Shown piece by piece: positions 1 to 5,266 of a DNA stretch of 64,000 bases (the first letter of the stretch is position 1; the number at the start of each line of letters is the position of its first letter). The DNA is taken from assembly GCA_039804105.1 (NCBI GenBank), contig JBDRZU010000002.1:256001-320000 (forward strand), read 5' to 3'. Under the pieces are notes generated by a model. That model had not been told where the DNA came from and made no database searches. It worked only from the letters and a program-made list of their open reading frames with translations. Made by a program: the position numbers and the translations under genes. Source of the stretch: a candidate division WOR-3 bacterium (GTDB lineage Bacteria; Hydrothermota; 32-111).

Positions 1-17
1 GACCATTTAAATAATTT

Positions 18-185
18 TTAAAGTTTGAACTCTTTTCTATCTTTGAACTCTTCCCTTTTACCTTCATTCCAGTTGTTAACTGGTCTAAAATAACCAACTA
101 TTCTACTGTAAATTTCTGTTGGAATCACTTTTACTTTTTTAACATCTTTTTCTTCACCTTTTAAAACAACTTTTACCTCTTCCAT
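18..185 (-). CDS. Stand-alone C-terminal glycyl-radical domain of class III ribonucleotide reductase (55 aa; not in ORF track)
   Basis: Hand translation MEEVKVVLKGEEKDVKKVKVIPTEIYSRIVGYFRPVNNWNEGKREEFKDRKEFKL. It has the NrdD R-x-x-G-Y glycyl motif and the WNxGKxxEFxDR tail. AAGGAG lies just upstream of ATG 185. Confidence 0.9.
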   Translation of the reverse strand: MEEVKVVLKGEEKDVKKVKVIPTEIYSRIVGYFRPVNNWNEGKREEFKDRKEFKL

Positions 186-2297
186 TTACTCTCCTTTTTC
201 AACATATATTTCAACACCAAATTTTTCAAGTTCTTCAGTCGTATGATCATAGGGACAATAGTTGTGTTCTCCGGGAATATATCCATGAACAGGACATATA
301 GAAAATGTTGGGGTTATGGTAAAATATGGTAGATGGAAATTTTCCGCTATCTTTTTCACAAGTTTTTTACAAGCATTTGAAGAATATATTCTTTCCCCAA
401 TGAAACCATGCAACACTGTTCCGCCTGTATACTGACACTGAAGTTCATCCTGCAATTTTAATGCTTCAAAAAGATCATCTGTAAAACCAACTGGAAGTTG
501 TGTAGAATTTGTATAATATGGAATATCTTTTCCTGCTGTTATGATATCCGGAAAACGTTTTTTGTCCTCTTTTGCAAGTCGGTATGATGTTCCCTCAGCC
601 GGCGACGCTTCAAGGTTATACAGGTTTCCAGTTTCATCTGTAAATTTTTCAAGTTTTTCTCTCATAAATTTTAGAGTTTCAAGTGCAAACTCTCTTCCTT
701 TACTTTGACCAATATTTTCTCCCATAAGCATTAAACATGCTTCATTCATTCCAACAAGTCCTATTGTAGAAAAATGGTTTGCCCAATATTTACCATTTGC
801 TTTTTTTACCTCTTCAAGATAAACTTTAGAATATGGATAAAGATTTTCTTCTGTGAACTTTTCAAGAACTTTTCTTTTAATTTCAAGAGATTCTTTTGCT
901 ATTTCCATCATCTTTTCAAGTTTTGAAAAAAATTCCACTTTATTTTTACTGTTATAAGCTATCCTTGGAATGTTTATCGTTACAACACCTACAGAACCAG
1001 TCATCGGATTTGCACCAAAAAGACCTCCACTTCTTTTTGGATGTTTTTCCTGTTTATGTTCCTGCACAAAATTCTTGTTTGAAAGTAGATTCAATTGAAT
1101 CTTTTCACTTCTTCTTTTTAACTCTCTGTTATCCAATCTCAACCTACAGCACATGCTCCTTGCATCTGATGGATCCATATCGGAATTAATGAAATTACTG
1201 AAATATGGTATACCATATTTTGCTGTCATCTCCCATATTTTTTCAAGATTTGGATTGTCCCAATCAAAATTTTTTGTTATGTTGTATGTTGGAATTGGAA
1301 ATGTAAAAATTCTACCCTTTGCGTCTCCTTCCATCATAACTTCGGCAAACGCTTTGTTGAACATATCCATTTCTTGCTGAAATTCTTTATATGTTTCATT
1401 CATCCTATTTCCACCGATTATCACTCTCTCATCCTTTAATGTTTCAGGACAGACAAGATCCATGGTTACATTTGTGAACGGTGTTTGAAATCCAACTCTT
1501 GTTGGAACATTAACATTGAAAACAAACTCCTGCATCGCCTGTTTTACTTCTTCATATGTTAATTCATCATACCTTATAAATGGAGCAAGATATGTATCAA
1601 AATTTGAAAATGCCTGTGCTCCCGCTGCCTCTCCCTGTAATGTATAAAAAAAGTTAACTATCTGTCCAAGAGCGGTTCTGAAATGTTTTGCTGGTTTTGA
1701 TTCTATTTTGCCTGAAACACCTCCTAAACCTTTAAGCAAAAGTAGTTCAAGATCCCATCCACAACAGTAAACTGAAAGCATTCCAAGATCATGTATATGT
1801 AAATCTCCCTCTCTGTGAGCATTTGCAACCTCTTTTGGATAAATTTTTTCAAGCCAATATGATGCCGAAATCGTTGAAGAGATATGGTTGTTAAGCCCCT
1901 GCAGAGAGTATGACATATTTGAATTTTCATTAACCCTCCAATCGATCCTTTCTATATACTCATCCATCAAATCGATACTATATTTCATCAACTCTTTACT
2001 CTTTCTTATCTGATTATGCTGCTCTCTGTAAAGTATATACGCTTTTGCGGTTTTAGCGTGTCCCGCTTCGATAAGCATCTTCTCAACAAGATCCTGCACA
2101 TTCTCGACTGTTGGAATCCTTCCATCTTTATACAGAACTTCAAGAACAGCAACTATCTGATTCGTTATCTTTTTGGCTGGCTCAATATCTGTTCCACCAA
2201 CAGCTTTCACCGCCTTAAAGATCGCTTCAGTTATTTTGTTTTCGTCAAATTTTTCCAGCCTACCATCTCTTTTTCTTATGTATTCAACCTTGGTCAC
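186..2297 (-). CDS. nrdD: Anaerobic (class III) ribonucleoside-triphosphate reductase, large subunit with N-terminal ATP cone, lacking the glycyl-radical loop
   Basis: ATP cone (IRKRDGRLEKFD...KI), HIHDL, SMCCRL finger loop, EASPAEG, YYTNS and C-terminal CPVH..CP. Likely start is GTG 2297 after GGAGG. Confidence 0.95.
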   Translation of the reverse strand: MTKVEYIRKRDGRLEKFDENKITEAIFKAVKAVGGTDIEPAKKITNQIVAVLEVLYKDGRIPTVENVQDLVEKMLIEAGHAKTAKAYILYREQHNQIRKSKELMKYSIDLMDEYIERIDWRVNENSNMSYSLQGLNNHISSTISASYWLEKIYPKEVANAHREGDLHIHDLGMLSVYCCGWDLELLLLKGLGGVSGKIESKPAKHFRTALGQIVNFFYTLQGEAAGAQAFSNFDTYLAPFIRYDELTYEEVKQAMQEFVFNVNVPTRVGFQTPFTNVTMDLVCPETLKDERVIIGGNRMNETYKEFQQEMDMFNKAFAEVMMEGDAKGRIFTFPIPTYNITKNFDWDNPNLEKIWEMTAKYGIPYFSNFINSDMDPSDARSMCCRLRLDNRELKRRSEKIQLNLLSNKNFVQEHKQEKHPKRSGGLFGANPMTGSVGVVTINIPRIAYNSKNKVEFFSKLEKMMEIAKESLEIKRKVLEKFTEENLYPYSKVYLEEVKKANGKYWANHFSTIGLVGMNEACLMLMGENIGQSKGREFALETLKFMREKLEKFTDETGNLYNLEASPAEGTSYRLAKEDKKRFPDIITAGKDIPYYTNSTQLPVGFTDDLFEALKLQDELQCQYTGGTVLHGFIGERIYSSNACKKLVKKIAENFHLPYFTITPTFSICPVHGYIPGEHNYCPYDHTTEELEKFGVEIYVEKGE

Positions 2298-2321
2298 CCA
2301 TTCCTCCATTTTTTTCAAAAA

Positions 2322-2349
2322 ATATTATCACTCACTTGAAAAATGTCAA
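2322..2349 (-). promoter_or_regulatory. Putative sigma70 promoter of nrdD
   Basis: TTGACA (2349-2344), 16 nt spacer, TAATAT (2327-2322). Confidence 0.6.
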
Positions 2350-2350
2350 T

Positions 2351-2376
2351 AGACCCCACAAAATATAGTGGGGTCT
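2351..2376 (-). terminator. Hairpin, possible terminator of the btu operon, overlapping the first NrdR box
   Basis: 9-bp stem AGACCCCAC/GTGGGGTCT, 8-nt loop, only a weak U tail. Confidence 0.5.
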
Positions 2377-2403
2377 TATTTTGTAAAATACAATATGTTG
2401 AAA
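2356..2403. promoter_or_regulatory. Tandem NrdR boxes
   Basis: ccacaaaatatagtgg (2356-2371) and atacaatatgttgaaa (2388-2403) match acaCwAtATaTwGtg. They are 32 bp apart, directly upstream of nrdD. Confidence 0.85.
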
Positions 2404-2426
2404 AATAACAGAACTTAAGGTTTTAA

Positions 2427-3383
2427 TTATTTTACAAACATTTCAGCAACCTTAAGAGGTATTTCATAGCTCAAAGAATCAACCAATGTAAGTTCTGAAA
2501 AATCAACAAGATACAATTTTCCAACATTTGTTGAAACAACCACTTTTCCTTTGAAATATTCAATATCTGAAGGTGATGGAATTTCAAGAGTTTTTATCAG
2601 GTTTAAATCCGTATCAAGAATGTATAACTTATTGAATATATCAGTTAAAAATAGTTTATCCTCAATAACTTTAATTTTTCCAAGAAAATTATCAAACTCT
2701 AAAGAATCAACATCAACACCATCTTTTACCTTTTTGATTTTACCTTTTATATCGTTATAGTTACCAACAAGAGAGACATAGATTTGATCGTTCTCATCAA
2801 GATCAAGGTAGGAAGGATTTGAACCTTTTGCAAGATCGGTTTCAACATTTTGAAAATCTTCAGATATTTTATAGATATGCCCATTCAAAGAGGTATTGTT
2901 CGATCCCACATATAAAAATCCATCTCTATAAACAACCTCCTGTGGTGCTGTAACTGATAATGAATCAACTATCAAAAAATTTTCTTTTTCTATTTTTAAA
3001 ATAGAATTCGAAAGCCAATCGGTAACAAAAATATAATTTTGATTACCTTCAATGTATGCAGGTGAACTCAAATCTCCCCTTTCGATCTGTGAAATTTTGT
3101 TTCCAGAAAGATCAAACTTTTCGATCGTTGGTGTTCCACCAAAACCTGAATTTGTAATGTAAATGTTTTTATCGTCAACATATATGTCTGTAGGTGCTGA
3201 ACCCGTTATCAAAAGTGGGGTTATTTGAAGCTGAAACAGAGAATCCACCGTATAAACCGATTCCTTTTCCCAATCAAGAATATAGATTGAACTTTCTACT
3301 TTTTCATTTTTAAACAGAGAACAGGAAATACTTAACAACAAAATCAATAAAACAGATAGAACAGCAAAAACTTTTTTCATCAT
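2427..3383 (-). CDS. Beta-propeller lipoprotein (YncE/BtuG-like), probable cobalamin-binding surface protein
   Basis: Lipobox LSISC, repeated P-x-x-I/IYV propeller blades, coupled to a TonB receptor under a B12 riboswitch. Confidence 0.65.
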   Translation of the reverse strand: MMKKVFAVLSVLLILLLSISCSLFKNEKVESSIYILDWEKESVYTVDSLFQLQITPLLITGSAPTDIYVDDKNIYITNSGFGGTPTIEKFDLSGNKISQIERGDLSSPAYIEGNQNYIFVTDWLSNSILKIEKENFLIVDSLSVTAPQEVVYRDGFLYVGSNNTSLNGHIYKISEDFQNVETDLAKGSNPSYLDLDENDQIYVSLVGNYNDIKGKIKKVKDGVDVDSLEFDNFLGKIKVIEDKLFLTDIFNKLYILDTDLNLIKTLEIPSPSDIEYFKGKVVVSTNVGKLYLVDFSELTLVDSLSYEIPLKVAEMFVK

Positions 3384-5266
3384 ACCTCCATTTTGAAGTT
3401 TAAAGAGAATTTTCTTCCTTCCTTAATATAACCTCTCACACTCTCAATTTTCAAATCGAACGGATTATCAATCGAAAGTGTAACATACAAACTCTTCAAT
3501 CTGTAATCCAAACTCACTTCATCAAAACAAAAATAGGGGGGTAAATATTTTGTGTTTTCATTGTTTAAAAACCTTTTCGATCGATATTCAAAATAAAGAG
3601 AAAAAATTAAATTCTTAAACTCATAACTCAAAGAATAGTTCAAGTTTATAAAAGATGTGTATAAAAGTATCTTGAATCTGTCCAGATACATTGGAGATAT
3701 TGTGAAGACGAGAGAGTTGTTAAAATTCAATATATTTTTGTTGTATTGAAAACCTATGTAAGGATTATAAGTTTTTAAAATGTTTTCTGGAGTATAAATT
3801 CCATTTATGTTTATCCATCTTATAAGGTCCTTGTAAAAGTTGAATCCACCCCAAAATTTTTTATCCTCTTTTGAAAAAGCAAAATGGTATGAATAAAGTT
3901 TTTCGTTTACAAGTTTTTCATTCCCTCGAGTAAAAATATCTCCAGTCCAGTAAAGTTCATTGAATGTCGGCCTTCTGGTTGAGATTTTCAAGGAGTGTGT
4001 TACAAGATATTCATTAAAATTGAACATTTTTAAAATCGAAAAACTGTATACAAAATTATTTTTAAAATTATCTTTTTTCCATGTAGATGAGATCGAAAAT
4101 GAATTCGAAATTTCAAAAGATTTTATAACAAAATTTGAAAAGATTCCGTAAAAAAATTCATTTGAAAATAAAACTTTCGTTGATACTATCGAGTTATTTT
4201 GAAAAAATAATCCAAAATCATTTTTCAGATCATTATAATTCACAATTATATTATTAGAACTTGTTTTTGAAGTATCATAAATTATCAGATCTTTATTATC
4301 GTAAATATAAGTGTATAGGTTATGTGAATAGAGTATTTTTAGGTTTTTTGCGGTTAAAAATTTAAAGTTTATAATTCTATTTTTTTCATAAATTGTTGAG
4401 TTATAAAATCTATGTCCCAAAATTCCAGGATCCCCTGTTTTGATTTTACCATCGATCATTAAAGTTGAAAAAAAGTTGTTATTAAAATAAAGATAATTCA
4501 AATACCCTTTCTGATAGGAGTTCAAAATTTTTTCTCTTTCAGGGATAACCATATCACTTTTATCAAAAGTTTCGTTTCCAATTTTTAACCCTTTGAATGA
4601 TAGAGTTAAATCAACATCATAAGATTTTTTGTCATCAAAATTAATATTAACTTTTGATCTATCAAGTTTCTCTATCTCAAAATTTATTCCCGATGAAAAA
4701 ATATTTTCACCATAGAAATTTGATATGCCATTTTTATAAAAACTGATAGTTGAAAAAATATTTTTTGGTAAAAGGTTTATTGGGACCGTTCTTGACTGCT
4801 GGTTAACGATTGGAACTCCATCAACACAAATCTGGTTATCTTCATTTAAGAGTCCATCAACAGAAATCACATAGTTTCTGTTGTACTCTCTTATAGTTAC
4901 AGAAGGAATTTTTTTTATAATAGAAACTGGATTTTTATTTTTTGTTTCCAATTTTAAAACTTCACCGTTTATCCTCTCTTTTTCGATTACAAGCGGTTTA
5001 TATGTAAAAGGTTCAATTTCAAGATAGATCCTTAAAGTTTCTTCTAAGACTTTAAATGTTAAAGATCTGTATCCTAACGAGGAAACTGTTATTTCTTTTC
5101 CTTTTTCTATTTCGAATGGAGTTTTTGTTTGATAAGGTTTATTATCAGAAGATACTGTAACATAATATATTTTTTCACCACTATTTTTGTCATAAACATA
5201 TACATAAGATGAAAATGATTTCATCAGGGAGAAAAAGATAAAGATAAATATAGCACACTTTTTCAT
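3380..5266 (-). CDS. TonB-dependent outer membrane receptor, BtuB-like (divergent)
   Basis: Signal peptide, plug-like segment (IPSVTI...VDGVPI), RRPTFNELYW, IDNPFD...GRKFSL C-terminus; downstream of a cobalamin riboswitch. Start ATG 5266. Confidence 0.8.
   Translation of the reverse strand: MKKCAIFIFIFFSLMKSFSSYVYVYDKNSGEKIYYVTVSSDNKPYQTKTPFEIEKGKEITVSSLGYRSLTFKVLEETLRIYLEIEPFTYKPLVIEKERINGEVLKLETKNKNPVSIIKKIPSVTIREYNRNYVISVDGLLNEDNQICVDGVPIVNQQSRTVPINLLPKNIFSTISFYKNGISNFYGENIFSSGINFEIEKLDRSKVNINFDDKKSYDVDLTLSFKGLKIGNETFDKSDMVIPEREKILNSYQKGYLNYLYFNNNFFSTLMIDGKIKTGDPGILGHRFYNSTIYEKNRIINFKFLTAKNLKILYSHNLYTYIYDNKDLIIYDTSKTSSNNIIVNYNDLKNDFGLFFQNNSIVSTKVLFSNEFFYGIFSNFVIKSFEISNSFSISSTWKKDNFKNNFVYSFSILKMFNFNEYLVTHSLKISTRRPTFNELYWTGDIFTRGNEKLVNEKLYSYHFAFSKEDKKFWGGFNFYKDLIRWININGIYTPENILKTYNPYIGFQYNKNILNFNNSLVFTISPMYLDRFKILLYTSFINLNYSLSYEFKNLIFSLYFEYRSKRFLNNENTKYLPPYFCFDEVSLDYRLKSLYVTLSIDNPFDLKIESVRGYIKEGRKFSLNFKMEV

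Follow-up and report, generated by a model that had tools for sequence, protein, structure and literature searches.

Here we describe a class III ribonucleotide reductase (RNR) locus at the left end of a 64,000-nucleotide (nt) stretch of contig JBDRZU010000002.1 (positions 256,001 to 320,000, assembly GCA_039804105.1; this whole stretch is called the window), from the genome of an uncultured hot-spring bacterium of the candidate division WOR-3 (1.8 Mb, 85% complete), an assignment in line with the database names of near-identical small proteins. The gene for the catalytic chain, nrdD, is present in two consecutive pieces: a large gene (nrdD-L), whose product ends without the glycyl-radical loop, and a 55-codon open reading frame (ORF) directly behind it (nrdD-S), which encodes this loop. 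Judging from the sequence and its relatives, the window very probably encodes a working class III RNR that is made of two polypeptides. In the comparisons below, labels of the type G000 denote genomes, L loci, f families and g genera, and residues of the large chain are numbered according to its 707-amino-acid (aa) version (ATG at 2309), the version used for co-folding. The features of the locus are the following:

189..2297, minus strand: nrdD-L, large catalytic chain of the class III RNR, with ATP-cone, barrel, double-Cys finger loop SMCCR and Cys/His knuckle, and without the glycyl-radical loop
243..296, minus strand: Cys/His knuckle, with C672 (296-294), H675 (287-285), C685 (257-255) and H689 (245-243)
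189..242, minus strand: 18-residue tail TTEELEKFGVEIYVEKGE of nrdD-L, present in split forms only
189..196, minus strand: Shine-Dalgarno-like AAGGAGAG within the 3' end of nrdD-L, 5 nt upstream of the small-gene ATG
186..188, minus strand: TAA stop of nrdD-L, abutting the small-gene ATG and in the same frame
21..185 (stop 20-18), minus strand: nrdD-S, small chain of 55 aa, with a variable N-terminus, the Lys-rich strand VKKVKVIPTE and the glycyl-radical loop IYSRIVGYFRPVNNWNEGKREEFKDR
93..95, minus strand: GGT codon of Gly31, the radical glycine in R-I-V-G-Y as predicted by sequence alignment
1..6, minus strand: start of nrdG (ATG 6-4), radical S-adenosylmethionine activase; the gene leaves the window at the left, and the complete gene of 233 aa is found at L002 779-1480
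2320..2405, minus strand: probable operon promoter and two palindromes resembling NrdR boxes, from a consensus scan and conservation

On the minus strand the frame runs ...CPVHGYIPGEHNYCPYDHTTEELEKFGVEIYVEKGE-TAA(188-186)-ATG(185-183)-MEEVKVVLKGEEKDVKKVKVIPTEIYSRIVGYFRPVNNWNEGKREEFKDRKEFKL-stop(20-18). The C-terminal end of the large chain reads ...FSICPVHGYIPGEHNYCPYDHTTEELEKFGVEIYVEKGE, followed by TAA and the abutting ATG of the 55-codon ORF, and the final codons of the tail double as the ribosome-binding site (RBS) of the small gene (AAGGAG). The gene nrdG begins 11 nt past nrdD-S. Depending on the start codon, nrdD-L would encode 703 aa (GTG 2297), 707 aa (ATG 2309) or 710 aa (TTG 2318). 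Its start is most likely the GTG, which is preceded by GGAGG at 5 nt and agrees with the V-S-x-I start of all sister genera. TTG 2318, the start given by the ORF-listing program, is unlikely, because in G004 a stop codon sits immediately before the equivalent GTG.

Curated models assign both pieces to the same family. The Pfam profile NRDD (PF13597) matches nrdD-L over positions 1-527 of 562 (626.2 bits, cut-off 26.2) and nrdD-S over positions 533-562 (37.8 bits, same cut-off); the ATP-cone of the large chain scores 82.5 bits in Pfam. In NCBIfam, nrdD-L matches NF006126 (1065.1 bits, cut-off 548) and TIGR02487 (544.9 bits, cut-off 326.35), and nrdD-S matches positions 552-580 of 581 of the latter model. 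Residues 22-55 of the small chain align with residues 654-687 of a one-piece relative of 688 aa, with 22 of 34 residues identical, and Gly31, which aligns with RVVGY in one-piece relatives, is invariant in all 15 small chains. The finger-loop cysteines C387 and C388 are invariant at the sequence level in 15/15 split rows and 23/23 mixed rows, and the nrdG product is recognized by TIGR02495, NrdG2 (199.9 bits, cut-off 131.15). The RxxGY loop is absent from nrdD-L, whose profile match stops short of it, and is found on the next ORF. At E-values up to 1 in Pfam and NCBIfam, nrdD-S matched NRDD-type models only, with no match to Gly_radical (PF01228) or to a GrcA model; an Rfam search of window positions 1-3500, also at E up to 1, returned two chance-level eukaryotic families and nothing relevant. 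By these matches, the locus is a class III RNR in all sequence features except for the location of the radical loop, which lies off the catalytic chain. A sequence-only reading of this DNA had proposed that NrdD ends after its knuckle without an RxxGY motif, that the loop is found on the next in-frame ORF joined as TAA-ATG, that an RBS-like signal lies inside the end of nrdD (now placed at 196-189) and that the ATG at 4-6 starts nrdG; frame reading and the profile matches bear out all four.

A bare in-frame stop, and nothing more, might point to a sequencing or assembly error or to a recent nonsense mutation that has left nrdD as a pseudogene. Relatives were inspected for the same break, as that reading had suggested. 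An NRDD match was found in 30 of 40 relatives searched, in many of these as a two-piece match, and in 184 of 271 genomes searched phylum-wide, where at least 36 rows, among those listed, had a large-piece match ending at profile positions 521-535. Junctions were read in 37 genomes with this pattern from seven families (f1, f2, f6, f8, f11, f30 and f39), the locus of G233, which ends at a contig edge, being left out of the count. At all 37 WOR-3 loci the large gene ends in a stop codon and the small ORF has a start of its own with an AAGGAG or GGAGG signal; the geometry of the junction varies among them. In the genus of this genome stop and ATG abut in frame in all five genomes, the stop being TAG in G002 and G003 and TAA in the other three (G000, G001 and G004). 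In sister genera the large and the small gene are separated by a spacer of 1 nt, hence another frame; the spacer measures 8-14 nt in family f2 and 15-28 nt in family f11 (there mostly with TTG starts), and the genes of G021 and G234 overlap one another. Across 186-188 the contigs of the possible source run are identical to this sequence. A different run of that study provided a 999-nt contig of a strain variant, which spans these positions, has four differences in 1-804 and keeps the stop. The varied geometry therefore rules out a sequencing error or recent mutation, an explanation to which we assign practically no probability, the more so as both pieces are under purifying selection and no other RNR was found (see below).

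The stop could instead be recoded, by read-through here and by frameshifting in relatives, which would yield a normal one-chain NrdD and leave the 55-aa ORF untranslated on its own. The common frame and the single stop between the ORFs in the five genomes of the genus are compatible with this idea. However, the stop codon differs within the genus, the small gene of other genera is shifted to the +1 or +2 frame and either overlaps the large gene or follows it at a distance of up to 28 nt, and a strong RBS with a correctly spaced start codon is found at every locus. In G241 an intergenic stop blocks the frame of the small gene upstream of its start, and therefore no single frameshift could fuse the two pieces. 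Because the junction geometry varies, a mechanism of read-through or frameshifting shared across the WOR-3 loci appears very unlikely, and we consider recoding as a whole a most improbable explanation. A profile of the small chain matched 4,863 of 1.84 billion cluster representatives; the best 150 of these matches are without exception proteins of 49-106 aa, some of which may be fragments.

The ratio of nonsynonymous to synonymous substitution rates (dN/dS) was computed against the congeners G002 and G004, with synonymous sites near saturation, and was mostly not computable beyond the genus. The values for the small ORF, 0.09 (against G002) and 0.06 (against G004), indicate strong purifying selection. 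Its radical-loop part gave 0.02 against G002 and was not computable against G004, and the N-terminal 23 residues gave 0.26 and 0.21. The corresponding values are 0.04 and 0.05 for the body of the large chain and 0.14 and 0.08 for the region of the 18-residue tail. One large and one small nrdD piece are present in this genome, in which no one-piece nrdD was found, and PF02867, the large chain of class I and II RNRs, was found in none of the five genomes of the genus, of which four reach a completeness of 95-100%; the control search detected it in 12 of 14 genomes used as reference. As neither a class I or II RNR nor a one-piece nrdD was found, the split enzyme appears to be the sole path of the cell to deoxyribonucleotides.

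The C-terminal regions of 35 split and 25 one-piece rows were compared around the break. Of the 25 one-piece rows, 24 have the C-terminal pattern C-P-x-H-G-Y...C-P-x-C-(4-5 residues)-E-V-Y-S-R-V-V-G-Y, and the four most distant of the one-piece rows have C-x-x-C as first knuckle. The second knuckle of split forms is C-P-x-x-H in 34/35 rows (CPYDH, CPYEH, CPYPH and variants), the C-x2-H ... C-x3-H pattern being kept in the same number; the present locus has C-P-V-H ... C-P-Y-D-H, as opposed to the C-P-x-H ... C-P-x-C of its one-piece relatives. Since the first knuckle is C-x-x-H also in close one-piece relatives, only the second is distinctive. In a HMMER alignment H675 faces the second Cys of the CxxC in the NrdD of Prevotella copri (8p23). 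The altered zinc site that had been suggested from the sequence alone holds in this sense, as a sequence pattern that separates split from one-piece forms, the metal site itself being putative.

Compared with one-piece relatives, about 40 or more extra residues are found at the break, here the 18-aa tail and a 23-aa leader of the small chain. The tail after the second knuckle measures 18-21 aa in f1 and f2 and 45-55 aa in f6, f11, f30 and f39, and the small chains start with a variable leader, followed by a conserved strand of alternating Lys and hydrophobic residues before P-T-E-I-Y-S-R. Insertions of this kind, like the unrelated insertion of about 320 aa that G006 carries elsewhere in nrdD, might call to mind the remnant of a mobile element, either an intein or split intein that joins the halves or a homing endonuclease that has split the gene. 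The latter is reportedly the case for nrdA of phage Aeh1, a class I gene whose enzyme is said to be still active. In Aeh1, however, the break lies in the protein body and the endonuclease gene in the gap, whereas at the present locus there is no gene between the pieces and the break isolates the radical loop. The 18 and 23 flanking residues are, moreover, far below the size of intein halves, no Hint, intein or endonuclease domain was found with Pfam at E up to 1, and the junction residue shows no conserved Cys, Ser or Thr. We give a mobile-element remnant hardly any credence.

In a tree of 60 large chains from which the C-terminal part had been removed (a quick LG+G4 tree, omitting G006 for its insertion, G017 for a frame break, G233 for the contig end and the duplicate L002), the split forms fall into two well-supported groups, f1 and f2 versus the rest. 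One-piece G114 nests beside the split G116, one-piece G096 is sister to the second split group, and at least three changes between the split and the one-piece state are needed on this tree. A single origin of the split in WOR-3 was rejected: holding the 35 split rows together cost 71.4 log-likelihood units (approximately unbiased test, p-AU 1.8e-6; the group was defined after the tree). With at least three changes of state and the monophyly of split forms rejected, splitting or re-fusing therefore seems, on this tree, to have occurred more than once within the phylum.

The large chain of G114 (L096, G114:C28) is an unbroken one-piece NrdD in which the altered knuckle is followed by the first part of the insertion (CPKEH-TEEEIRKYGKNGKIPAEVYSR), and might represent either an intermediate or a re-fusion. 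As for the omitted sequences, the insertion in nrdD-L of G006 (L031, G006:C67) separates profile positions 156 and 157 of NRDD and lies in a single open frame of 1031 aa. The insertion, which may be an intein, gave no Pfam match, with coordinates or frame possibly off in that search. In nrdD-L of G017 (L026, G017:C182) a change of frame at profile position 434/435 is probably a frameshift or an assembly error.

The fit of the two chains was predicted by co-folding, another check that the sequence-only reading had named. The 707-aa and the 55-aa chain, each with an alignment of 15 rows, were folded together in three runs and alongside three controls, and reached a median interface score (ipSAE, interaction prediction score from aligned errors) of 0.83 against 0.00 for the best control. 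In the calibration of the tool, 116 of 157 complexes of solved structure reach that mark, as do 2 of 215 mismatched pairs; these counts apply only approximately here, the alignments being our own. Between runs at least 94% of the contacts recur, the predicted local distance difference test (pLDDT) of the partner is at least 72, and the interface comprises 175-181 contacts. In the model, residues 13-55 of the small chain touch the knuckle, the tail at 697-705 and the barrel, residues 13-35 all being part of the interface. Residues 21-26 lie along the two strands of the knuckle (668-672 and 681-685), and the tightest pairs include residue 21 against 697 and 698. The last part of the tail (GVEIYVEK) is predicted to contact the N-terminal strand of the small chain, which we read as an acidic tail (EIYVEKGE) lying opposite a Lys-rich strand (KKVKVI). 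Contacts with the barrel, at 127-133, 278, 333-339, 365-367, 570-579 and 592-650, are made by the glycine loop and by the helix at the C-terminus. The prediction supports binding of NrdD-L and NrdD-S. The two-subunit class III RNR suggested from the sequence alone is in this way supported by the junctions of all 37 loci, by purifying selection, by the lack of a second RNR in the searches of the genus and by the co-fold.

Several observations weigh against this reading. The co-fold score may be a memory of solved one-chain NrdD structures, because each chain is one half of a fold that has often been solved as one chain, and would then show likeness to those structures rather than binding between the two chains. 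With the genome 85% complete, the view of the split enzyme as the only RNR leans mainly on the four more complete congeners. The stop is confirmed on assembled contigs, of which only one is independent and shares its study with the possible source, and the in-frame arrangement of the ORFs in this genus would still leave room for a low-level read-through product. Finally, the split NrdD of G093 (L039, G093:C55) lacks three of the four knuckle ligands (SPVS...DPNPH).

The layout of the genes, its conservation, the purifying selection and the lack of another detectable RNR are observed here; how the two chains assemble, are activated on NrdD-S and catalyse the reaction is what we infer. Taken together as a two-chain enzyme, the parts suggest the following course. 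The genes nrdD-L, nrdD-S and nrdG form one operon, and NrdD-S would be translated from its own RBS in the last codons of nrdD-L, probably by translational coupling, as the abutting stop and start suggest. With its Lys-rich strand, NrdD-S would pack onto the knuckle of NrdD-L and onto the acidic tail of 18 residues, its glycine loop would insert into the barrel at the site that the covalent C-terminal domain takes in one-piece enzymes, and NrdG would then form the glycyl radical on Gly31 of NrdD-S.

Separate small chains of this kind were also found outside WOR-3. Named genomes were scanned with 13 small proteins of a different type, 'xCG', as queries, and the best 80 loci were classed by a motif script into 62 fused, 2 contig-edge, 7 small and 9 missed loci, the last two classes being read by eye and with a wider motif. 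This yielded ten split loci in Victivallales/Lentisphaeria, including the cultured Victivallis vadensis DSM 14823, and one each in metagenome-assembled genomes (MAGs) of Thermoguttaceae and Woesearchaeota:

L097-L105, L109, L110 and L128: split loci outside WOR-3, with L104 and G271 belonging to V. vadensis DSM 14823

In the Victivallales type the large chain ends in C-P-V-H...C-P and the small chain starts with M-A-K-C-G, and the fourth knuckle ligand would therefore lie on the small chain. This hinge split is independent of that in WOR-3. V. vadensis itself combines one split NrdD with two one-piece NrdDs and a single orphan small piece; in its order the two-piece pattern occurs in 24 of 41 sampled genomes, seven more rows are full-length with 1-2 internal stops, and several genomes hold 3-5 small pieces. 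In a long-read MAG of Lentisphaeria, three identical small ORFs lie in tandem between the large gene and nrdG (L098 2418-3135), which could either be a real increase in dosage or an artefact of long-read assembly; the large gene is frameshifted in this assembly.

Among the best 80 of 269 matches on viral contigs, a heuristic classed 16 as one-piece, 4 as split and linked, and 60 as small without a large gene within 500 nt upstream, the last being an overestimate of lone small ORFs, as at L205 an NrdD-large piece lies 1.35 kb upstream. At two of six loci checked (L194 3001-3111 and L236 3001-3111) the small ORF directly follows the gene for the large subunit of the terminase, and no NrdD large gene was found within 3 kb of either.

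Within WOR-3, 13 of 15 genomes of genus g17 encode, in addition to the first, an unlinked small chain of the NrdD type (57-61 aa), which has its own AAGGAGG and ATG and dN/dS values of 0.09-0.16. Eleven of the 14 loci read lie between a gene for a double rhodanese and a gene for a metallo-beta-lactamase with rhodanese, and 8 of the 14 proteins end in S-C-[EG]-C-E-E, a C-x-C motif. The orphan of G027 is flanked by genes that, by eye, resemble metY, nifS and nifU. These loci are:

L049/L076 (G039:C35), L053, L061, L064, L070-L072, L074, L075, L077, L079 and others: orphan small chains of g17

Another free-standing form is encoded at L080 1465-1848 (G250:C168), a protein of 128 aa with two CxxC pairs followed by EVYSRIVGY (PF13597 positions 519-562), which comprises the entire Zn-ribbon and glycyl-radical domain.

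Two views of the role of the small chain have to be weighed. NrdD-S might be a detachable radical cartridge that is charged by NrdG, cut by O2 at Gly31, discarded and replaced, so that the 80-kDa body survives. We offer this tentatively and doubt it somewhat more than we believe it. The second unlinked small chains in g17, the orphans of Victivallales and the viral small chains support exchange indirectly, from other lineages, and the single small-chain gene of the present genome, coupled stop-to-start, fits a fixed subunit equally well. The two chains could accordingly form a stable obligate heterodimer without exchange, in which the split is a neutral or near-neutral by-product of an insertion at the hinge and NrdD-S acts in all respects as the covalent C-terminal domain does; this view, which rivals the exchange and leaves the two-chain enzyme as such untouched, has in our estimate a good chance of being correct, if slightly short of an even one. 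The single small gene abutting the large one suggests equimolar synthesis, the predicted interface is large, and the repeated changes between split and fused states, with the one-piece G114 among split forms, suggest that the two states are nearly equivalent. On the other hand, a fixed heterodimer would hardly account for extra unlinked small chains under selection in g17, for the many orphan copies in Victivallales or for small chains beside terminase genes on viral contigs, although none of these comes from this genome. If the small chain is indeed exchanged, the repair principle of GrcA would be the normal design of an RNR, the same socket would take the paralogous small chains of WOR-3 and Victivallales as well as those of phages, and phages could use their small chains to sustain the synthesis of deoxyribonucleotides in the host.

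With the one-chain NrdD/NrdG systems of phage T4 (1H78/1H79), Thermotoga maritima (4COI/4U3E) and P. copri (8P23) the locus shares its family, according to curated models and matches to these PDB entries, as well as the ATP-cone, barrel, finger loop, knuckle before the loop, RxxGY and adjacent nrdG. It differs from them in that the loop is a separate chain of 55 aa, the second knuckle is C-P-Y-D-H in place of C-P-x-C and about 40 residues are added. Small accessory chains occur in other glycyl-radical enzymes, such as the alpha-beta-gamma benzylsuccinate synthase and 4-hydroxyphenylacetate decarboxylase; in those multi-subunit enzymes, however, it is the large chain that keeps the radical glycine, the small ones being Fe-S or structural subunits. 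GrcA (YfiD) in Escherichia coli and the phage T4 protein Y06I are likewise small free proteins with a radical glycine loop that docks into a large body. The partner of GrcA, pyruvate formate-lyase, has its own radical domain and GrcA is a back-up after cleavage by O2, whereas here the small chain would be the normal and only carrier; nrdD-S is also set apart from the GrcA family by the lack of sequence membership. That an activase can act on a small spare-part protein is described for the YfiD/Y06I systems (PMC8683613). NrdJa/NrdJb of Pseudomonas aeruginosa also has the catalytic chain of an RNR in two polypeptides, both of which are required, the small C-terminal piece serving the radical/redox cycle and not substrate binding (Crona et al., PMC4520616). 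However, NrdJ is a B12-dependent class II enzyme without a glycyl radical, and NrdJb carries reducing cysteines instead of the radical; for the present RNR, the absence of PF02867 matches in the five genomes of the genus and the NRDD match of the large chain argue against class II membership.

In the scheme of Burnim et al. (2022), the glycyl-radical domain is C-terminal and class III enzymes divide into groups with a single-Cys and a double-Cys finger loop (PMC9669993). From its SMCCR motif the present enzyme belongs to the double-Cys group, sharing the MCCR loop with the T. maritima-type subclass (PMC9669993). Only YfiD and Y06I had been validated as spare-part proteins by 2021, while other glycyl-radical enzymes were speculated to have such proteins (Andorfer et al., 2021; PMC8683613), and in a 2026 review no class other than formate lyases has identified ones (PMC13450708, section 5.3). 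The excerpts of PMC9669993 and PMC4390871 contain no mention of a split class III RNR, and no description of a split or spare-part NrdD was found in searches of 8.1 million papers in PubMed Central and bioRxiv, a coverage outside which subscription-only papers lie. The present locus would contradict the published view that split RNRs of free-living organisms are restricted to NrdJa/b.

To our knowledge, all glycyl-radical enzymes lose the radical and the intact chain to O2 at the radical glycine, and we know of no remedy other than GrcA/YfiD for pyruvate formate-lyase. Spare parts for other glycyl-radical enzymes have so far been a matter of open speculation (PMC8683613; PMC13450708). A radical loop that is always separate makes it possible to test how an activase acts on a peptide-sized substrate, how tightly the loop is held and whether it is exchanged for repair or regulation, and its recurrence in unrelated lineages, among them the cultured V. 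vadensis DSM 14823, makes such experiments feasible. For annotation, it follows that a 'truncated' nrdD accompanied by an ORF of 50-100 aa labelled 'hypothetical' or 'NrdD fragment' should not be called a pseudogene.

Upstream of nrdD-L, the best promoter match of the region (TTGACA, 16 nt, TG-TAATAT at 2349-2322, minus strand; 10/12 consensus matches) is likely the promoter of the operon. A weaker promoter-like site inside the end of nrdD-L (229-201, minus strand; TTGAAA, 17 nt, TATGTT; 9/12) was not counted as evidence, as 17 such sites were found where 9.3 are expected in shuffled sequence. Just upstream of the likely promoter lie the palindromes CAACATATTGTAT and CCACTATATTTTGTGG, about 32 bp apart, and both promoter site and palindromes are conserved in all five species of the genus. 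The palindromes resemble NrdR boxes. A gene for nrdR is present in the genome on contig C1. On the plus strand (2351-2376), the second palindrome also received a score as a terminator-like hairpin.

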